Source of the DNA: Lophium mytilinum
Taxonomy: Eukaryota
Direction: 5' to 3'
DNA: 64,000 nucleotides
Assembly: GCA_010093605.1 (NCBI GenBank)
Contig: MU004181.1
Span: 2,976,001-3,040,000 of the forward strand
Of the stretch, positions 28,176 through 57,347 are shown piece after piece (positions within the stretch are counted from its first letter, which is position 1; each line of letters opens with the position of its first letter). Both the position numbers and the translations under genes were made by a program. Under the pieces are notes generated by a model. The model saw only the letters and a program-made list of their open reading frames with translations, made no database searches and was not told where the DNA came from.

Positions 28176-31100
28176 TTACACACCGCGGAACTAGGATATC
28201 GTCAGCTAACACAGCCCATTGGGAGTAGCGTGGGGCTTGCGGGAACGTGAGACTTACCATTCGTACAACCAAAAACCACATGGCACCGATGAATCTGAAA
28301 GCACTGAGACCTGCCACACTCCACAAGATCACCGTCAGGTAGATCTGAGCCTTGCGTTGCTCATCCGTATCTGCCTTGCCATCCTTGGAAGCAACACTCA
28401 ATCCACCCGTCTGGAGGACCACGGCACAGAGCGCCAGATTACAGAACATCCATAACAGAACGACGGAAGATCGGAATCCTTTGTAGTAATCTTCCTGCTT
28501 GTCCGAAGCGCTCGCTTCCTTCTTCGGTTCAACATATTTAGTGTCGAAGACGCGCAGTTCCGCCTCGTATTGGGTATTGAGATCTGCATCGTCCGTGGGT
28601 GCTGTGATATTTGCTTTTCCGTCTGGCTTCGTTGTCACCGAGGGTAGTTTCTCGGCCTTGTCGTCTCCTTTCGTGCCCCACGTGATGTCGTGCGTGTTGC
28701 AGAAAGCATACACGTTGAGAATGTTGATGTAAGTAGGTGTCATGAGGAGATACTGGATGAACGACGTGAACATATGCCATGGATCCAGGAAAATGATTGA
28801 CACGAGAAGATAGAGGACGTAGGTTGACAGCATCGAAACAATCAGCGTGAAGAAGGTCTTGTCGGTGAAGATATCGTGGAAGGTGAGACCGTCTTTGGAA
28901 TGGATCTCGGCTTGAACGGATTTGACGGTGATGAATATTGAAGCAAATAAGAGATAGCTAAACAGCTGTTAGAGTAATCCTGCGAAACAAGAGAGTCAAG
29001 CTTACGCCATGATAATGCACCAAAAGTACACCATGCTCATGTAAAACTTATTGGAACCTTGAGGTCGATTGCCAAGTGATAGCACGAAGCAAGTCACTAG
29101 GGTTGCCAAATATGTCCACTCAAAGACGACGAACAGGACTTTGCCTGCAGTGCCTAGCAAGTCTGCTAATGAGTTGGTCAAGATGTGGAAAACCAGGAAA
29201 AAGTTGCCCTATTGGAAGTGTTAAGAGGGCGTCTTCACCGTCTCTGGATATGATCACTTACAATGGCAAACCATGCAAACAGCATGCTGATCGTCTGATA
29301 AAAGAACTCAATCAGGAACATGAACTTGCGGATAAACGTGTGGTCGCTTCTGAAGATCTCATGAGAATGAGCGAGGGCATACACGGCAGCGAAAAAACTG
29401 CCGTTGAGCCATCTTCGGCGCTGCAGGATGAAATCGGCCATCTCAACAGGCACGTCAGTCTCGCCAGTGGCTGACTTGACGTATTGCAAGATCCAGTGGC
29501 AATTCCTTTTGGAAACCAGTTCGAAACAGAGGATACGATCTTCCGCAAGGTACATGTTGGCGGTAAATATGCCAGCATTGGCGCCATGCATCTTCTCGCC
29601 GGCAAAGTATTTCTCTAGCGGTCCATTTCCGGTCTTGTCATTTTGCAAAGCCACGAATCGATAAGCCGAAAAGGCACCTGGGAGCACGGAGATGAACCCA
29701 AACGCCGATTCGAGCGGCTTGTCAAGAATGTTGCTCATCTTGTACTCAAAGTTCTGTGTTGCGACAAGTGGGTTGAGAAGTTTCTTGCCATGCTCCAACA
29801 TGGCTTTGATCTCTCCACAGGCACCACCGCACATTGGTTCCAGATCGAAACACTTCCAGAGTTGATACACAGAGTCCTTTCCAGGCTTGGTACCGGCATC
29901 GATAAGAACGCAAATGTTGGGGTCTAGAACGGCTCCGAAAGCCTGGAAGAACCATCGATGCGAGTTGATCTTTTTCTGGTTCTTCTCCTTTAGGCAGAAG
30001 AGAACTTGAACTGGTGTTACGCCTTTCTTGACGTTGACAATTCCCTTTTTGATTTCGACAGTCATTTGGGTAGTGTACTAGTCACTTTGTCAGCTTTATG
30101 CCTTACTTCTTCACCTGCTTTACCTACTTCGTAAATATGCGCGGTGACATCCTTGCCGTTGACCTGCTGCTTCGCGATGCCATCCTGGTATACTCCTAAG
30201 CCAGCGAGTACAGCTCTAGTCCGCGGGTTGATCTTAGCTCGGCCATCGCTGACCACACACACGACAATTTTCTTCCATGCATCTTTGCCCCATGTTTTGC
30301 TATTTGTCCTAGAGTTCATATATTCAATGTTCTTGATGACTCCGGACATTGTCCGCGCGAATAACTCGTCCTCTTCGTTGTACATGGTGATGACGATGAA
30401 TAGCTCCGTATGTCTTGGCTTGGCGAACAGCTTCTGCCTCAGAGTGAAACGCTCTTCGAAGAAGTGCGCCGGATCGCAGGTTGCGGCAGAATATCGCATG
30501 TGCGTAAATTCGTCGCGCTCTGGCGGTGCGGCATGGTTGACTTGATTGAGTAGCCTTGGAGGAATCGGGCAATCTAGCACTAGGTTGCCTTTGAACAGCT
30601 GCACTTCCTTCACGGTTTTCCATCTCTTCAATGGCGTAGGACTCGGTGCCGGGGCCGGCTCGTCGTGGTATTCTTCGCCGTGTGGGCTCAAGCCGCCTGG
30701 ACTTGTAGGTGAGTGTGGATCTGGCCCATACGGGTTCTCAGGCTGCAACATCGGCCTGTCGTCTGCATCATCTTGCCAGTAGTGTTGGTCTGGGACTCCA
30801 GGGTGAGGATCATAGCCCTGGTTGAAGTATGCGTCTTGGTGATCTTGGGGGGATATCGCGTATTCTCCGCCTTGGGGATGAGGGTTGTATGGGCCAGGGG
30901 AGTAGCGATGGTCGGTTTCGTAGACTTCGTTATGGCCATATGAGGTGTTTATGTTTTCAACTGAGTACTGTGCCCAAATGTCAGCCCAGGCTCCGCCGCG
31001 TTCTGCTCCATTTCCCACTCACAGTAGGCTGTGCCTGTAGTCTGTCTCCTGGAGTGCCCGGTCCTGGCCCTGGGCCCATGGGGATTTCTAGAGGCGCGCC

Positions 31101-31196: not shown

Positions 31197-32886
31197 TCCG
31201 GCGTCGTAGTGTTCGCTTTCTTCGCCTTGGGACCCTATGAAAGTTGAGTGTCAGTTGGGTGAATTCACTCGGCGCAACAAATTGCGACAACTATGGGGCA
31301 CGGAATCGTAGGAGCCGGCCTCCACAACTTCTGTGGTCATTCAAGGAGCTGGGGCCGTATGTAGCACCGCCGACGTGGATCTGGGGCAATGCAATAGACA
31401 AAGGGCCATAGCCCCCTCCAAGACAAGAGAAGCCTTCACTCACCAAGTCTGTTGTAGCGGGACATTGCAACTGTCTGGCGGCCTCTGTGAGCTGGCCCTG
31501 ACTGGCTGATCCCCGGAAATGATCGCGTAGGCAAGGAAACGCGAGTGAAGGCTGTGGAATGCGCCGAGGGGTCGTGCTGCGGATCGGCAGAGTCGTTTCA
31601 AGTGTGTTTTGGCCGCGTGTTTACGCTGGCGCAGTGGCAACGGGCAACGAGAGACCAACAATACAGAGCCTACAGCCACGGGATGAATGGATGAGGAGAA
31701 AGATGCAACGAGGGTGGATGGAAATGCAGTAAATAGCGTCCGGTCAGCTGTGTCTCAGCCGCGCTAGGAACGGTGTAGTGAGCCTTGGGAGATCGCAGGC
31801 AAGTCGGGGGGGTCTCAGCATCTTCAGCCACGCCGCCACGACAACCCTCGCAGCCACTACCCGGTCAAGCATCTTCCAAGTTTATATCTAAATTAGGAAA
31901 CGTGACAAAGACGCGCGCTTTCTTGGAGAAGCTGCGGCTGCATGGCGATGTGGTTGCCCTTTCTCACATCTCTTGGCTTTCTGAAAACGACTATATATGC
32001 GTCGAGAGGTTTTTGTCCACTGTTGTTCGACTATCATTCTAGACTTGGCTCCCACGCTCCCTGGCTCTCAGCCGTTCAGCTCTAAGCCTCAGCCCAGCTT
32101 CTAGGAGTTACAAGCGACAAGCGCGATGCCTTATCCTGAAAGCTAGAAAGCAGTAGGCATAGCGTAGCTACCGGGTACCGTTCAGTCTCACCCGAAAGTT
32201 CCGGAATTAGGGCTGGGCAGTCGCAAACTCCTTCTACCTAGTTGAAATGAGCGGTCAGTGCGTACTCTAGAAGAGGAAGAAGGTACCCAGTATCCTATGA
32301 AGTTTCAACCTTATAGGAAAGTTATTGAAGAAGTGTACTTATATCTCTGAATCTTGCTATGAAAAAGTGATCACCCCTGAGCCTGAAAACTTTCAATACT
32401 TGTGTCAAGATGTTGAACCTGCTTTGAAACCGCAGCTTGACCTACATAGGTAGTCATGGCCATCGATATATTGCTAACTGTCTACGCTTGAATGATTCGA
32501 CACTGAAGAGCTATTAAAATCGCTACTAATGCTGTTCAAGCTCCGCCCACGGAGCAAGCCAGCCCGAGCACCATACTCCTTAGAAAGATCAGAACTCTTC
32601 ACGAATGATGTCGTTGTCAGAGGACTGGAGTAGGAAGTCACGTGCAGCCTCTCAACACCGAGCAAGCTGCAGCCACAATCCACTTCACAGTACTCAGAAG
32701 AGTTGAGATATAATTCTGTCATATTTGAACCATCTTCGTAGCATTTCAATCAACCATAACCGCTCGTAGATATGATAATGCATTGAAAGAACTACAGGCT
32801 CACTCTATTGGCCATATCTAATTGGAGGTCTGCGGCACCTTTCACCTCACACGTCTGTAGCTCCACTACCCAGATCACCCACGAAC

Positions 32887-33553
32887 ATGACTGCAGGAGA
32901 ATCAGCCGCATCAAGTGCCATGCCAGGAGAGGCTGTCAACAAGCCATCTGGCTCAATGCAGCCCGTCTCGGTCCTATTCGTCTGCTTGGGCAATATCTGT
33001 AAGATCAACCTCGATACCATTCAGGCAGAGGCTGACACCCTCAGGTCGCTCACCCATGGCCGAGGGCGTCTTCCAGCACATCGCCAAACCCAAACACGCC
33101 CCCCACCACCCTCTCATCAACCAAATCGACAGCTGCGGTACAGGAGCCTACCACATCGGCGACGGGCCAGACTCCCGCACCATGTCGACCCTCGCCGACA
33201 ACGGCATCAAATCCTACAAGCACAGAGCCCGAAAATTCAGCACCACCGACTTCACTACCTTCGACTATATCATGGCCATGGACGACGATAACGCGGACCA
33301 CCTGGTACGTCTACGGAAGCGGTTGCTGAAGCAGAATAACCTGGAGGACCATGAGTTAGGGCGAGTCATGCTCTTTGGGGAGTTTGGAGGGCGGAAAGGC
33401 GAGGAGATTGCGGATCCTTATTATGGAGCGCGGAACGGATTTGAGATTGCATATGAGCAGGTCGTGCGAATGACCAATGGCTTTCTCAAGACGCTCGAGA
33501 AGGAAGCTGCTGCGGCGGACACGGCGGCTAGTGGAGAGAAGAGCGGGCTGTGA
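32887..33553 (+). CDS. LTP1: Low-molecular-weight protein tyrosine phosphatase
   Basis: VLFVCLGNI|CRSPMAE (CX5R across one intron), DSCGTGAYH, DPYYG. Confidence 0.93.
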
Positions 33554-34006
33554 GAGACAGTCTGCGTGTTCTCGAAATTCTAACGATACCAGCTGGCTTG
33601 GTCAGAACCAACGGGCCAGTTGCATGATTGATGATACCCCCCATTAGATAGCAGGGACCTTCGTGTCACGAATCGATGCACAAGATGCCTAGTGGATTTT
33701 ACAATATAAAAGATAATTGTAACGGAATAGCATAGGCATTGCTATTGCGAGGCGTTTGTGGAAGATGATCAAGCAGTCCATGCACCAAAAAATAATCTAA
33801 AGCAGAACTAGATTCGCAAAGCTCCCTGAACTTTCCAAAGAGAGCCAGCCTAATCAGCACCGTTCAGTGTCCCAGTCTTCCTTCCATATTCCGGTAAACC
33901 TTCTCTATCAAACAAATCAGCACATCAGATTCCATTTTCGAGAACCTCCACATCACGTACCTTTCCTGCTCTATCTTTCATCGCATTCCATTTTGTAGCA
34001 GCTTAC

Positions 34007-34135
34007 TCAAGTCTTTCTCTTCCCTTCATGCTCATCGACAAAACGAGCTTCTGGTTCAAACTCAGCTATCGGGGTCCATCGCGCCGAAACACCCAACGCG
34101 AAAAAGGCCATCATGAGAATAGTGGAGGAGCGCAT
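34007..34135 (-). other. Short ORF with a signal peptide (small secreted peptide or decayed effector gene)
   Basis: 42 aa MRSSTILMMAFFALGVSA-RWTPIAEFEPEARFVDEHEGKRKT*; canonical-looking intron downstream (GTACGT...GCTGAT...TAG, about 33960-33905). Confidence 0.4.
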
Positions 34136-34887
34136 CGTGATATCAGTCTTGCTAAATCTGCTCAATCAAAGGACAGCGATGCGGTAGTCTTGCACGGAGC
34201 AGTATAGAATTGAAGAACGCGAGGGTTTGGGTTGAGGTATGAACAAAATGGAGTACGGATGTGCTTCTATATCTATTGCTCTCATGGTCGAAACGTGGCT
34301 CTTAGGATGGCCGCGTCATGGATTTCGTAGGTGGTGGCTCCATTGCGGCGAGGTAAGTGCCTACAGGATCTCGAAGGGAGCTGGACGTCGGTTTTAGGGT
34401 TGTGTCGTGAGCTATTGCAACACAATGAATAGACCAGGAACTATCATTTACCAAACACCCCATCAAGCATCATGATCTTAGCTTGAGAATCTATCGATTC
34501 ACTGTTTATCAACAACTGCGCATGCAGTCGCGCAACCTGTGAATACACCTCTTAGCTTCATGTGGAATGGGAGTCGACTACATGTGCACTGCCTCAATCC
34601 GCCGCTGTAGGACTGTAGAGGACACATTTAGGTCACGGATACATCAGATTTGCAAAGTAGGTAAACAAGGGTAGCTTCACTACCTAGTATTTCTCAGTTA
34701 TGTTATGCTGGTGGTTAACTACCAGGTCGCATTCAAACACTACAAAATTAGGATATTTCATATGGATTGCATTTAGGTGGCTTCATTTCTACTCAAAAAA
34801 CCCCACAGGATAGGATAAGGATCCATGTCCTTCGTACTCTCTCAAAAATATGAATCCTCCTTGTAGTGATAGGCATCAATCACCCAC

Positions 34888-37800
34888 TCAGATGATCACG
34901 CGACCAGCCGCTTCAACGACGTCTTCGACCGGCACTGCCCCTAACTCGACCTCTAGCCACCCTTTGGCCTTCTCGACCACCAGCTCCCACGCATCCTTCT
35001 CACTAGCTAACTTCTTCTCAAAGAAGGCCACAGCCAGCGCAGTCGCAACTGTTCTCTGTGAATACATCGTCGCCAGCTTCACCGTGTGCTCCTTGCTGAT
35101 ACCAATCACAGCAAACAGTGCATCAGTCCACTCCCAAAACCCTTCGAAGGTCTGCAGTTCCACCAGCGTATCCAGCTTCGGACGCGGTGGACTGCTCGCA
35201 GGGTTAAATTCTTGAACACTCTGAGAACCGAAGAACGCTGGCGCAGCACTAAACGGTTTAAATGAATTGCTGCTGCTGCTGCCGAACAACGATGGTGCAG
35301 CACTAGACGGTTTATATGACTTGCCGCTGCTGCTGCCGAACAATGATGGTGCAGCACTAGACGGCTTCGGTGTACTGCTGCTGCTGTTACCGAATACGGA
35401 GCCGAAAAGAGACGGCTGCTTCTTTGCCTCTTTGGAGAACATCCTCGAATTGCTGGACAGGCTATCGCTCTTATCGACCAACGAGTCCAGCCGTTCGCCT
35501 CGCTGCATCACGCTGCCTAGATTCTGCGCTAGGAAAACGTTGTCACTTGCCGCCGACTTGCGTTGTTGTGGCGGCGCAGCTCCACATGACGCGAATGATG
35601 TCTGTTGAGTTACTCCGAAAGGTGATGAAGGTGCCGGTGGTGCGGGCGGCGCTCCTGGTGCTCCAAACAACGAGGGAGAGCCTGTTCTAGCGGAACTGGA
35701 TCGTGCGGAGCCAAACAGGCCACCGCCAGGTGCTTGTATAGAGGCAGCCTGGACAGCGCCACCAAAGCGAGAACTAGGTGATGCCATTCTGGCCTTGATC
35801 TTGTCCATACCCCCGAAAAGGGCGGAAGATTCTGGCTGAGGCACCCTATGTGACGATATAGTGCTGGGTACATCAAGCCATTCGACGTTAACCAGAGTGG
35901 AGTCGTCAGACGCAGACTCGTCAGCCTTATTGCTCTCAACGGCGACGAATGAGCACCACTTCCCACCAACTTGATACTGGACGCCAAGTCGAACTGCTTC
36001 GCGCTCCACCATGTCTTCGAAACGACTTTCGTATTTCTTCTTGAGTAGGTTCTGTGCTTCATCCCTGGCTTCTGTAAGCCAGCCGCGATCCTGCTCTAGC
36101 TCCGCGATTGCTTTTTTTGCTGCCAATTGGTGAATGGTTTCCCCTGGAGTGTCGAGAATCTGAACCGGGATCTCGAGTTCCAGCGGACCATGCGCTGAAG
36201 TGCCTCGAAGAACCACCGACTTAGGTTTCTTTTGGACAGAGCTGGGGCCTAGAAGGAGATACACACTAGTCCGACTGAATGGGAATAAAGGAGGAATGTT
36301 TTGGGGTGCTTGAAGCACACTCGGAGTTGCAATCGTTGGGAGATGGGCATAACGCGCTTCGCCAGATTCGTCAATGGGAGTGGGTTCTTCCTTGTCCAGG
36401 TTTACCGACAGATCGAATAGTGATATGGGCTTTTTCTGTGGGTTGCTATTAGCATTGCTTGATGTTGATTGGGATTCGGAAGCTTGCTGGAGAAAGCTGA
36501 AGGTATGAGTAGGGAATTGCATAGTGGGGAATGAAAACAAATAGGATCCGAAGCCTTGATCTCTTTCAAGGAAATACGGTTTGAGAGGGGTTAAGTTACC
36601 GGTTCGTCTTTCGTTGTCTCCTTCTCTGTTGTCTTGATACTCAAACTATCGATCGCTTTCTCAACAATCTCGAACTCATCGTCGATAGTCGAGCTGTTGT
36701 CGTCGACGTATTTCACCTCCAAGCTATAGTCGGTAACGTGCGGCGACAGTGCCCCTTTCAACATGCGAACAACCTTGCTGTCAAGCTTCTCGCCTTCGCC
36801 CACGGCCTGGGAGAATCCATTGCCAGCCCTTGCAATGCCCTCAATGAGTGCATGAGAGACGCCATTCCCAATGCCCAGTGTGAACACACGTATCGGTGCC
36901 TTACTTTCGATGACCTCCTTGTTAAGGTATGAGAACAGGGTCTCCTGATCCCAAATCTCGCCATCAGTCAGTAGCATCACTTCAAGTGGGATATCTTTGT
37001 ATCGTAGTTCCAACGTGGCCCTGATTGGTGCGAACATTTCGGTGCCGCCATAATCGGCCTGAAACGTTTCGACGTGTTTGATGGCTTCATCAAGACTCGA
37101 TTGACTGTAAGACTTGCTCTTCTTCCATAAGAACGAGTGACGAGAACCGAACGAGCAGATGTTGAAGTTTACCCCAAGAGGCAGAGACTTCAGGAAGACT
37201 TTCAGGGCGCTGACGACAAGCGGAATTTTGCTCCCCGCCATGCTACCGCTTCGATCACAGATGAAAACCACTTCTGGTCTCTCAGGTGGGAGCGAAAACT
37301 TCGGGACTAGAGTTGCCATCAACGCGCGCTGATTAGGGATTGTAGGGTGGGTTTCGAGCACAGCAGTCGGTACTCCGGTGTCTTTCGACACTACTTGTAG
37401 AACAAAATCCTTCTCGAGCTCAGCACTACCAAGACTGAGAGTTGCTGACGCCGAGGTCATTTTCGGTTCAGCTTTCGGGGCAAGAGATGTGTTTCCCATT
37501 GTGACAGATATGGGGTGGCTAGGCGATCGCATTTGCTGAATGAAGGACTTTTCGGGCATCTCGACATCTACAGTGATTTGAATACCTTTGCCTTGAGTGT
37601 TATGTGCACTTCTAGCCAGGTCTCCAGGATAATCGCCGTACCGCGGAGCGATGACAGTGGGGATTGTGAATCGTATCCCATCTACCTCGGCGTCATGCTT
37701 GAGCTCACCAAGATACGTGATCTCGGTAACGAGTGAAGCTCCAGGAGGCACATTTCCCACAGTAGTAGTAAAGACATCAGAGGCATCCAGGAGCTGCTCC

Positions 37801-38138
37801 AGAAGGCCTGCGGTCTCTCCTCGAGCGACGGCCTCTTTGTAAACTGCTTTGGCTTTTTCCTTCTCTTTCACCTCGCCTATGATAGTCCTATCTCCTATGC
37901 GGCATTGAAAGCCGACGACACTGACTCCATCATAAAGCGGGAACGTGAATCTTAGCTCCTTGATACCCTTCGACTGGGATGGATTGACGAAAGTTTGCGT
38001 GAGCGTTGTGCGTGAAGTTGTGGACAAGATTATTGTGTGTGCTTGCAGGTCGACTTGTGGAAGATATTGTAGCTTCACCAGTCCGACGACATGGGGATTT
38101 GGGATCACGTAATATACTCCGCAAATATGGACCGCCAT
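34888..38138 (-). CDS. VIT + vWA domain protein (VWA5A-like) with FG-repeat linker and R-SNARE-like insert
   Basis: VIT (TTLTQTFVNP...FTFPLYDGVSV...DVFTTTVGNVP), vWA MIDAS DRSGS...TDGE, intron 36599..36436 (in frame), C-terminal LVELQTFEGFW...WELVVEKAKGWL. Confidence 0.9.
35222..35394 (-). repeat. Three-copy 54-nt (18-aa) coding tandem repeat
   Basis: FGNSSSSTPKPSSAAPSL / FGSSSGKSYKPSSAAPSL / FGSSSSNSFKPFSAAPAF; ccgaa recurs at 35228, 35282, 35336 and 35390. Confidence 0.9.
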
Positions 38139-39002
38139 TGTGACTAGGATAGAAGGAGCAGTGGATATAAAAGTGGAAAATAATTTGAATGATCAAAAGA
38201 ATAGGATATTGGATGACAATGCACGGGGGCAATGACTATGGGTTGTAGATAATTCAGTGGGTATTCAGCGAGCAAGGTCAGGATATAGACGAATGTGAAG
38301 GCAGCACGATCTTAACTTGTAGTGTTGCCTAGTCCTACCTAGCTGCCTGGACGGCGTCGTGCTGAAGTCAGTTAATTTCCTGGAACAGCAAGCTAAGGGG
38401 ATATGTGGCTGGAATACGAAATGATCTCATGTCTCAGGGGACCTTCGGTGGCTCGATAACGTGAGTCAGCGATAAGAGTTGAAGTCTGGCTGATTCTAGG
38501 AAGAACACAGCCGCGATTTGGCGTCTTTGACGGCACGCCTTCGAGGCGCAGTCTGGGGAAAAGCAAGCGCCCGTAGGTATGATTCGATCGATCGCTTGCA
38601 TACAGCGTGTTCTAGTTTCAGACCGCCTGAGCTAATACGCGGCAAGGTTCGTGGAATTCAGAAGAGCTCGGATCGCCATATGTAGGAGGTTGTGCTTTGA
38701 GGGGTGTGGCTCGCCGTATTTTGCTACCGCGGACCGTAATAGCTACGCTGCTTCCGTAGGCCATCACGTTGCAGGACACTTTTCTGTGAATAATTGCTTG
38801 TAGTACTGCAGGAATTGATTTCTAGTATCTTTGAATCCACGTGGCCAAAAACCAAATCAGCAGACAGAAGAGGTGGACAAGAGCGTTTCTTTTGATTCCG
38901 TCTTGGCGCCATAATCCGCGATAGCTCCCCAGCAGCAGCTTCAGCGGCATCATCGAACATTCGCCATCAACCGCCATCTCCCCAGCAATCCACAACAACA
39001 CC

Positions 39003-40203
39003 ATGGAGGGCCTCTTTTACAACGTCAAGTTCGGCTACATTGAGGGTATTGTACGGGGCTACCGGAATGCCCTACTCACCAGTCAAAACTACGGCAACCT
39101 GACGCAATGCGAAACCATAGACGGTACGTTCTTTACTGATTCCGCTACAAGCTCAGTCTAATGCTCCCTAGATGTGAAGCTCCAGCTCTCTCCCGCCTAT
39201 GGGGACTTCCTCTCTGCTCTCCCGCCGAAACCATCCACCTCCGCGCTGGCGAACAAAACCACCGAGAAGCTCGTCGCCGAGTTTCGTTACGTTCAGGCGA
39301 ATGCGACAGGATCTCTCTCCAAGTTCATGGAGTATCTCACGTATGGATACATGATCGACAATGTCGCCCTGCTCATTACTGGAACGCTACACGAGCGGGA
39401 TACACGCGAGCTGCTGGAGAGATGCCATCCTCTAGGTTGGTTCGAAACCATGCCCGTGCTCTGCGTGGCCACCAACATCGAGGAGCTCTACAACTCCGTA
39501 TTGATTGAGACCCCCCTGGCGCCATACTTCAAGGGATCGCTCAGCCACCAAGACTTGGACGAGCTTAACATCGAGATTATCCGGAACACTCTTTACAAGA
39601 ACTATCTGGAGGATTTCTACAACTGGGTCAACACACACCCCGATCTCGCCGGGACGCCCACGTCAGACGTCATGACAGAAGTACTGGAGTTTGAGGCGGA
39701 TCGGAGAAGCATCAATATCACACTGAACTCCTTCGGCACTGAGTTGTCGAAGGCAGACAGGAAGAAGCTATATCCCAGCTTTGGTAGGTTGCACCCGGAG
39801 GGCACACTCATGCTGTCGAGGGCAGATGACGTCGAGGGTGTGCGTATCGCCGTAGAGTCTGTAGCGGACTACAAGAGCTTCTTCGACCAAACCGGCCTGA
39901 GCCAAGGTGGGCAGTCTGGAGTTGGCAACATGGCTGGCGGGGTTGGTGGAGAGTCGAGGAGCTTGGAGGATCTGTTCTACCAGAAAGAAATGGAGATCTC
40001 CAAGCTTGCTTTCACCCGTCAGTTTACGCACGCTGTGGTGTACGCATGGGTGAAATTACGGGAACAGGTATGTTCAAATAAAGCTGCGTTGCCTAAGCTC
40101 GGTTCACTGACGAATTCAGGAAATCCGTAATATCACTTGGATAGCAGAATGCATTGCACAGAACCAGAAGGAGAGGATCGGGAACTACATCAGTGTGTTC
40201 TGA
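39003..40203 (+). CDS. VMA6: V-ATPase V0 subunit d
   Basis: [26 protein letters not shown]...YMIDNV...FEADRR...[21 protein letters not shown]; two introns. Confidence 0.97.
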
Positions 40204-56483: not shown

Positions 56484-56993
56484 TCAAGATGTAGATTGAG
56501 CGCCACCGGCATCGAAGCCCCCTAATTCTCTATTTGAGGACTGAAGCTTCACAGTCTCTCTGGTCCAATTGCGCCGTTTGAGCATGCGAGAGACGGTGGC
56601 CTGTGAAACCTCAACACCATGCTCTTCGCCCAGCCACTTGACAATCTCATCTTGGTCTTTCCATCCCTCTTCTAACAACCACTGGAAGACCCTATCCTCA
56701 TCCGCTTGAGAGAGCTTAAGAGGCCGTCCGGATTTCGCGAGTCGTGGTTTGACCGCAGCGCCATATCGCACTAAGTTCTGATGCGTCTTGTACACAGTCG
56801 TCGGTGATACCCTAACCCGTGTGGCAATTTCTGCCGCAGGCCAACCCAGCAGGAGATGTCGTACTATTTCAAGGCGTTGAGACTCGGAAACCGGGGTCTG
56901 AGTGCCGCCACGCGTTCGAGCGTTAGGGGACGGGAAGGGCTCCCGTGCGAGGCTCACTGGACACCAGAAAAAGGTCAGTAGGAAGGACTTCAA
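56484..56993 (-). mobile_element. Tc1/mariner (IS630)-type transposase N-terminal HTH remnant without a DDE domain
   Basis: AAEIATRVRVSPTTVYK (HTH1), GRPLKL linker, DEIVKWL.EEHGVEVSQATVSRMLKRRNWTR (HTH2); stops before the catalytic domain; no TIRs recognised. Confidence 0.65.
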
Positions 56994-57347
56994 TATGCGC
57001 GAATAACCTCACTTCTCGTTGTTAAGGAAAGGTTGAAGAGTAGACATTAATTAGGTGGTGTCCCACGATTCTCGTACAAACTTTGGTGAGGAACGCGGAG
57101 AACAAAGCGCCAAGGATTTTCTCGCTATTTTGCATATCCAACGGGACACGAGAGTCGATTTTAGCCTGAATCCATGAGTACCTGACTGCATCGCGGCTCC
57201 ATGGATAGAGCTTCACGGAGGTGCTGCCCCCGTTGTACACAATACTAGGTAGCTGCATGCTTTAAGACAACCCCTTCCTATGAATATGGAGAAACGCTTC
57301 GTCTCCAGCTTTGCTATTCAATCACGTAGCACAACACACAACACTCA

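Follow-up and report, generated by a model that had tools for sequence, protein, structure and literature searches.

Few known regulators of membrane fusion carry an R-SNARE motif without an anchor, and the mode of action of those that do, the tomosyn/Sro7 proteins and amisyn, is still debated. Tomosyn and amisyn are the natural soluble precedents for such regulation. An artificial precedent is the synaptobrevin fragment 49-96: bound to syntaxin 1a and SNAP-25, it makes up the stabilised deltaN acceptor complex, from which the zippering of full-length synaptobrevin displaces it (PMC5986196). For the cytoplasmic VWA5A/Vwa1 clade of VIT-vWA proteins, the accessible part of PMC10539598 describes a VIT domain, a hybrid/vWFA region, helices, a disordered loop and a C-terminal domain (CTD). 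Here we describe a gene in a 64,000-nucleotide stretch of the Lophium mytilinum genome (GenBank assembly GCA_010093605.1, contig MU004181.1, positions 2,976,001 to 3,040,000 of the forward strand; hereafter, the window). Its product is predicted to be a soluble VWA5A/Vwa1-like member of the VIT-vWA family, and its disordered linker very probably contains a genuine R-SNARE motif of the synaptobrevin family, with an Arg at the zero layer and with the C-terminal half preserved.

The motif and its parts are located as follows.

35416..35541, minus strand: peptide of 42 residues (residues 812-853)
35419..35532, minus strand: stretch matched by the Pfam profile (L815-K852)
35425..35532, minus strand: R-SNARE core, layers -3 to +7, from the alignment to VAMP4 and Ykt6 and a layer table of 30 members
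35500..35502, minus strand: zero-layer residue R825, aligned to the Arg of ERG in VAMP4 and Ykt6

A sequence-only reading of this DNA had placed a Ykt6-like R-SNARE motif at 35416..35545; the peptide does lie there, but the range overshoots its true span (35541..35416, minus strand) by 4 bases. The Synaptobrevin profile of Pfam (PF00957) matched the exon-2 product significantly, with an E-value of 6.3e-8 and a score of 32.8 bits (the curated cut-off is 26.4 bits), and a 75-residue piece with 2.8e-9 and 37.1 bits, in both cases over profile positions 19-56 of 89. When all PDB chain sequences were searched with phmmer, 23 distinct matches were obtained at E<=10 and 23 of the 23 were R-SNAREs, headed by VAMP4 (7.7e-7), Ykt6 (6.6e-6), Nyv1 (1.3e-4) and Snc1 (5.6e-4) and followed by VAMP7, VAMP8, Sec22b and VAMP2. 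A search profile made from 18 motif segments of the family (alignment A1) gave E-values of 1.4e-13 for VAMP4, 2.1e-11 for Ykt6, 2e-9 for VAMP8, 6.6e-9 for Snc1, 2.3e-8 for Nyv1, 3.4e-8 for Sec22b and 6.4e-3 for tomosyn; VAMP2 and VAMP7 also matched, and unrelated PDB chains appeared only at E>0.09, after all the R-SNAREs. Seventeen of the 18 segments matched PF00957, and none matched another Pfam family. The R-SNARE signature with its zero-layer Arg, as claimed by the sequence-only reading, is borne out by these matches.

The layers were assigned with the numbering and spacing of synaptobrevin. In the window's protein they are L815 (-3), N818 (-2), V822 (-1), R825 (0), L829 (+1), L832 (+2), S836 (+3), L839 (+4), S843 (+5), F846 (+6) and A850 (+7), with Q at +8; R825 is presumed to be the zero layer from the identity of the zero-layer Arg in the R-SNARE signature. 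All 18 segments of alignment A1 agree in the columns of R (0), G, L (+2) and F (+6), and nearly all do in those of E and L (+1). Across 30 carriers, the canonical residue types at layers -1 to +6 occur, in order, in 22 (V/I), 26 (L), 27 (L), 27 (S/T/A), 20 (L), 25 (S/A) and 22 (F) proteins. Layers -7 to -4 are occupied by P, Q, A and D in the window's protein, none of them hydrophobic, and LIVMF residues are found there in only 2-8 of the 30 carriers. The protein has neither the complete 16-layer SNARE motif (-7 to +8) nor a membrane anchor, and the lack of the first SNARE heptads reported earlier agrees with both the profile span and these residues. Since P0012 and the Mortierella proteins keep heptad-like residues farther upstream, the ancestral motif was probably longer. 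As judged from the alignments, the preserved part is mainly the bundle-core face together with the RGE signature.

The sequence-only reading had regarded the motif as a captured SNARE fragment. A word-indexed search with the exon-2 product returned 794 proteins at E<=1e-3; among the 120 matches listed, all were fungal VIT-vWA proteins, and PF00957 was precomputed together with VIT and VWA on 7 of them. An exhaustive HMMER search of cluster representatives returned 1588 proteins at E<=1e-3 (150 listed). With a local profile iterated from the window's motif, the motif was detected in 28 of the 265 relatives fetched, which places it in relatives from several fungal groups, and P0266 and P0267-P0269 are further carriers. 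The carriers include the following genera.

Dothideomycetes: Lepidopterella, Clohesyomyces, Paraphoma, Pyrenochaeta, Setomelanomma, Sporormia, Tothia
Sordariomycetes: Cephalotrichum, Parascedosporium, Cylindrodendrum, Neonectria
Lichen fungus: Piccolia
Mortierellaceae: Mortierella, Entomortierella, Actinomortierella

A fragment private to this genome is therefore not what was found; the motif is a recurrent, positionally fixed feature of the fungal VIT-vWA family. It lies between the folded body and the CTD in every carrier in which both landmarks were located, and a phenylalanine-glycine (FG) dipeptide follows 29-36 residues past the zero layer in 22/30 carriers, typically as ...AKKxxxSGLFGGLFG. 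This linker position and FG spacing favour one origin over repeated capture.

The conservation of the motif differs from that of its surroundings. Identity of the motif core to three clade relatives is 53-66%, as against 24-33% for the upstream linker and 9-17% for the downstream linker, and about 57% for the CTD. Beyond the window's clade, the flanks were compared in two Pleosporales groups and one Mortierellaceae group; in the Pleosporales groups, the core reached 36% versus 14-22% in the flanks and 53% versus 33-36%. On these alignments, the motif is a conservation island, chiefly at the predicted bundle-core (layer) positions.

The resemblance to Ykt6 was only partly confirmed. The bit scores of the 18-segment profile were 53.7 for VAMP4, 46.7 for Ykt6, 38.7 for Snc1, 37.0 for Nyv1 and 36.4 for Sec22b, so that Ykt6 is the highest-scoring R-SNARE type in the PDB that also occurs in fungi, but the animal VAMP4 scores higher. 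To our knowledge, fungi have no VAMP4. The alignment to Ykt6 runs through its tail (...ARKQNS), to within 4 residues of the Ykt6 C-terminus. Ykt6 is a plausible best guess among the fungal R-SNARE types, but, as VAMP4 outscores it, no more than a candidate ancestor. Word-indexed searches with the motif (1 match among 102 candidates; 11 matches among 8000 scored) returned VIT-vWA proteins only and no canonical R-SNAREs, a protein atlas search with the motif region gave no usable match, and no SNARE gene lies within the 64-kb window.

The gene consists of two exons on the minus strand and encodes a protein of 1028 residues, organised as follows.

36600..38138, minus strand: exon 1, 513 codons long and starting with the ATG at 38138, assigned from the open reading frame (ORF) and ATG; source of the VIT domain and of the vWA domain, whose metal ion-dependent adhesion site (MIDAS; DRSGS, GGTEM, LLTDGE) is complete
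36436..36599, minus strand: intron of 164 nucleotides, GT..AG, phase 0, joined across by the spliced X1 contig
34888..36435, minus strand: exon 2, 515 codons and the stop; source of the rest of the body after the vWA domain, of the FG linker that carries the R-SNARE motif, and of the CTD
37713..38051, minus strand: VIT domain, residues 30-142 (Pfam PF08487, E 1.8e-38, 131.5 bits)
36807..37274, minus strand: vWA domain, residues 289-444 (Pfam PF13768, VWA_3, E 2.1e-31, 109.5 bits; PF00092, 43.9 bits)
35185..35874, minus strand: low-complexity linker rich in Ser/Ala/Pro/Gly, residues 701-930, from a composition scan
34891..35184, minus strand: helical CTD, residues 931-1028 (98 residues), LQTFEGFWEW...WELVVEKAKGWLE

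A contig of 5419 letters from the public run X1 aligns to 34600-36435 and 36600-38361 with 0 differences and skips 36436-36599, joining the two exons in frame; the skipped stretch reads CT..AC on the plus strand and hence GT..AG in the direction of the gene. That run X1 is RNA is only a guess by its label; the contig was taken as a spliced transcript because of its canonical, in-frame GT..AG joint. There is no joint inside the motif segment, which is retained in the spliced sequence. As the contig is spliced and yet keeps the motif, the segment is exonic and the locus is no assembly chimera; its in-frame location in exon 2 was thus read correctly from the start. An intron acceptor at 36487, 51 nucleotides off, was ruled out by the contig, which joins 36435 to 36600. 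The last 51 nucleotides of the intron (36436-36486, minus strand) stay open in frame, with an in-frame CAG at 36487; an alternative acceptor there is conceivable and would add 17 residues (QASESQSTSSNANSNPQ), and the sole contig seen uses the acceptor at 36436.

The remainder of the protein has the features of the VIT-vWA family: the VIT domain precedes the vWA domain, the MIDAS is intact, and the CTD comes after a disordered loop. The translation contains the MIDAS residues (DRSGS, the T of GGTEM and the D of LLTDGE), and their columns are invariant in an alignment of 100 relatives. The N-terminus fits the family consensus HxCGLYY, and 55-57 of the 98 residues of the CTD (56-58%) are identical to those of clade relatives. 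The linker contains 10 FG dipeptides of the SLFG/GLFG type, 5 before the motif and 5 after it, and the Pfam family Nucleoporin_FG matches it with 32.2 bits, exactly equal to the cut-off. When both exon products were scanned against Pfam at E<=10, only VIT, vWA, Synaptobrevin and Nucleoporin_FG were found; there was no Longin family, no WD40 propeller or PH domain family, and no other nucleoporin family. A simple hydropathy scan, which is not a dedicated predictor, revealed no transmembrane-like segment outside the vWA core, the highest 19-residue value (1.68) being inside the vWA fold at residue 305. The C-terminus reads ...GRVII, without a CAAX box, and lies 175 residues beyond the end of the motif, after the FG linker and the soluble CTD. 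The earlier statements that the motif sits in a low-complexity linker between the vWA region and a helical CTD, and that the protein has no longin domain and no transmembrane or CAAX anchor, all agree with these results (composition, Pfam and CTD conservation for the linker; the Pfam scan for the longin domain; the C-terminal residues and the hydropathy peak for the anchor).

The structure of the full-length homologue P0002 was predicted with AlphaFold2 from an alignment of 100 sequences. The model has a confident body and a helical CTD, with a mean predicted local distance difference test score (pLDDT) of 75 and a predicted template modelling score of 0.72. Throughout the linker, motif included, pLDDT is below 40, and this region forms no helix and does not dock to the body or the CTD. 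The accessible part of PMC6318248 states for synaptobrevin-2 that the SNARE motif is unstructured until it is in a complex. The modelled disorder of the motif alone would be as expected for SNARE motifs and speaks neither for nor against binding.

Considering these features, we tentatively suggest, with a little less than even confidence, that the FG-linker R-SNARE half-motif of this VIT-vWA protein engages Q-SNAREs. The motif would be unstructured alone and would fold into a helix on an acceptor bundle of Qa, Qb and Qc SNAREs, where it would fill the C-terminal half of the R-helix groove, that is, the zero layer and the membrane-proximal half. Since it has no anchor and no N-terminal nucleation half, it could not drive fusion. 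Its binding might instead recruit the MIDAS-bearing VIT-vWA body and the cohesive FG linker to Q-SNARE complexes, with the role of a placeholder or stabiliser, like synaptobrevin 49-96 in the artificial deltaN complex, or of a clamp, as proposed for tomosyn and amisyn. By analogy with these systems, such recruitment is possible, and we hold it with about as much confidence as the engagement itself.

Several observations weigh against a role in Q-SNARE complexes. Most of the relatives fetched (237/265) do not reach an E-value of 1e-3 with the motif profile, the motif being missing or degenerate, and 28 carriers in 265 is if anything an overestimate, as the lists were ranked by a motif-containing query. 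On a FastTree tree of the conserved N-terminal 700 residues (203 rows; 58 proteins shorter than 850 residues and 6 with a matched span below 500 residues were left out), the motif is scattered, with 16 state changes for 26 carriers, and this patchiness implies that it is dispensable for the core function of the family. In the sister protein from Glonium, the motif is disrupted, only 9/32 residues being identical. This protein, P0004 from Glonium stellatum, reads ...LSAVLGRRESPHPPPPTRRSRSSESNMFA opposite residues ~812-853, where its relatives have LSAVLERGERLDTLTDKSASLSSQSKMF, and the disruption has the look of a frameshift or of a faulty gene model in the motif region. In the Mortierellaceae group, the core has 52% identity versus 43% and 83% (downstream) in the flanks, which is not a clean test, probably because the downstream flank reaches into the CTD. 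In addition, the accessible part of PMC10965968 questions a simple competition (decoy) model for tomosyn. Binding would also be weaker because layers -7 to -4 are gone. In a rival reading, the motif would be the decaying relic of an ancestral fusion or insertion, eroding without a present function, and its remnant would be conserved only through short divergence times. The patchy spread and the Glonium disruption fit such a relic, as do degenerate versions such as ERGYRHEGL and TKSERLD and the family-wide loss of the N-terminal half. However, the signature has lasted across Sordariomycetes, Dothideomycetes, a lichen fungus and Mortierellaceae amid nearly unalignable flanks (9-33% within one clade), the residues kept are those of the bundle layers, and the state changes are fewer than in 200 label shuffles (mean 24.9, minimum 21). 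The motif is phylogenetically clustered but often absent and, as far as the tree of these sequences indicates, has probably been lost many times, although part of the absences may stem from wrong gene models, the linker being of low complexity. We consider a relic without function rather unlikely.

It could also be supposed that the motif is functional without entering a Q-SNARE bundle, its ERGE-LD-L helix docking to a Sec1/Munc18 (SM) protein, a tether or Sec17/Sec18, or acting as an intramolecular ligand with its acidic residues on the protein's own MIDAS or CTD. Conservation like that of the core is also seen at the surface, in G and E of RGE and in D of LD, the MIDAS of the vWA domain is intact and invariant, and an autoinhibitory contact between CTD and vWFA has been modelled for Dictyostelium Vwa1, according to the accessible part of PMC10539598. 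Yet these surface residues need no special explanation, as they are also conserved in ordinary R-SNAREs, and in the AlphaFold2 model of P0002 the motif, with pLDDT<40, touches neither the body nor the CTD; a partner of this kind seems improbable. An artefact, in which the segment would be intronic, an assembly chimera or a chance low-complexity match, might be suspected from its position in a low-complexity region and from the initial splice model, which was off by 51 nucleotides. This is contradicted by the spliced contig, which spans the segment with 0 differences and no joint within it, by E-values of 1e-7 to 1e-13 that fall on R-SNAREs only, and by the presence of the motif in independent genomes, and we give it practically no weight.

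Within the Mortierellaceae, the VIT-vWA proteins form one clade (P0007, P0008, P0010, P0014, P0021, P0026, P0050, P0056, P0090 and P0113). It groups with the Pleosporales and the Mytilinidiales-like clade of the window, apart from the other Dothideomycetes, the Sordariomycetes and the lichen fungi. The support for this grouping is 97 (FastTree local support, 203 rows) and 99 (Shimodaira-Hasegawa-like approximate likelihood ratio test, quick IQ-TREE tree of 39 rows), both trees being unrooted; it could be the result of horizontal transfer between an ascomycete lineage and the Mortierellaceae or of hidden paralogy. The family is expanded in the Mortierellaceae: among the matches listed, four come from Mortierella sp. 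AD094 (P0008, P0014, P0045 and P0050), and one Benniella record holds five listed proteins (P0026, P0038, P0052, P0059 and P0061), which suggests a tandem cluster. Only some of the Mortierellaceae paralogues keep the SNARE motif.

The neighbourhood of the gene in the window contains the following features.

39162-40130, plus strand: gene for V-ATPase subunit d (AC39; Pfam E 6e-69), in head-to-head orientation to the VIT-vWA gene
32891-33553, plus strand: low-molecular-weight phosphotyrosine phosphatase gene (Pfam LMWPc, E 3e-27), convergent with the VIT-vWA gene
29238-31018, minus strand: chitin synthase gene (Chitin_synth_1N, Chitin_synth_1 and Chitin_synth_2) in at least 2 ORFs, consistent with an intron
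56487-57008, minus strand: ORF with homeodomain-like matches HTH_32, HTH_23 and HTH_29 (E about 1e-9)

The V-ATPase subunit d gene is ~1 kb from the ATG of the VIT-vWA gene, and the promoter region may be common to both. The X1 contig reaches ~1.8 kb to the left of 34600 (about 32779-38361) and also spans the phosphatase gene; the 3' ends of the two convergent transcripts seem to meet or overlap. The ORF at 56487-57008 may, judging by its matches, be the N-terminal DNA-binding part of a Tc1/mariner-type transposase, a transposon remnant.

A literature search on SNARE combined with VIT or vWA found no paper on such an architecture, and one on fungal VIT-vWA proteins returned nothing relevant. 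The words 'Willebrand' and 'VWA' are absent from the accessible text of the SNARE surveys PMC2639358, PMC11344281 and PMC11204939, whose supplementary tables could still list such proteins. In that text, the fungal survey (PMC2639358) names only tomosyn/Sro7 as R.Reg and never mentions vWA; surveys restricted to canonical architectures could overlook a protein of this kind. The sequence-only reading knew of no described fungal VIT-vWA-SNARE architecture, and no describing paper was found, but the architecture is already visible in automatic Pfam annotation, on the 7 annotated relatives among the 120 listed. The sequence evidence suggests an undescribed soluble SNARE-binding regulator.

If the half-motif does engage Q-SNAREs, it would give a handle on how partial SNARE engagement stabilises or clamps acceptors in vivo, and it would be the first functional lead for the otherwise uncharacterised VWA5A-like VIT-vWA family of fungi; if the motif is a relic, it would be a mere domain-shuffling curiosity. 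A bolder and, in our judgement, doubtful extension is that these proteins form a third class of fungal soluble regulatory R-SNARE proteins beside tomosyn/Sro7 and amisyn. A natural peptide of the C-terminal R-SNARE half on a disordered FG linker would then be parked on the membrane-proximal half of Q-SNARE acceptors, as the cellular counterpart of the deltaN complex, and would couple a MIDAS adhesion module and a cohesive FG domain to fusion sites. The unit would be [R-SNARE -1..+7]-[KK]-[GLFGGLFG], in which a basic stretch and an aromatic FG tract replace the juxtamembrane region.

Compared with the described R-SNAREs, the window's protein shares with Ykt6 the signature ERGE(K/R)LDxLVxKSxxLxxxSKxFxxxA+KQxS and the absence of a transmembrane helix. 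Ykt6 has a lipid anchor at its CCAIM/CAAX end. Unlike Ykt6, the window's protein has no longin domain and no lipid anchor, layers -7 to -4 are gone, and the motif sits mid-protein in an FG linker. The synaptobrevin 49-96 fragment covers nearly the same span, roughly from layer -2/-3 to +8; however, it is a laboratory construct of a neuronal SNARE, whereas the fragment in the window is a natural part of a larger protein, with putative binding.

The other half of the comparison concerns the protein in which the motif is embedded. Human VWA5A/BCSC-1, Dictyostelium Vwa1 and the VIT-vWA part of PARP4 likewise combine a VIT domain and a MIDAS-bearing vWA domain with helical and beta elements, a disordered loop and a CTD, and the CTD of the window's protein corresponds to the 'CTD' of Dictyostelium Vwa1 in the accessible part of PMC10539598. 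In contrast to the VIT-vWA proteins of that paper, in whose accessible text 'SNARE' occurs 0 times, the R-SNARE motif and the FG repeats of the loop belong to the fungal branch. The 10 SLFG/GLFG-type dipeptides in a Ser-rich spacer (Nucleoporin_FG, 32.2 bits) recall the FG nucleoporins, but the protein has no nucleoporin anchoring domain, the score does not exceed the cut-off, and the likeness may be purely compositional. Like tomosyn/Sro7 and amisyn, the window's protein joins an anchor-less R-SNARE-like motif to a large unrelated interaction module, and a non-fusogenic engagement of Q-SNAREs would be expected of it. Tomosyn has WD40 propellers and amisyn a PH domain in the place of VIT and vWA, and their motif is C-terminal, whereas that of the window's protein is internal with only its C-terminal half kept. 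As the similarity to the tomosyn motif is weak (E 0.0064), the protein is not a member of the tomosyn family. By its predicted domains and motif, it most closely resembles the soluble regulatory R-SNAREs while standing outside their families, and the motif is real, expressed and conserved, though patchy, among fungal VIT-vWA proteins.

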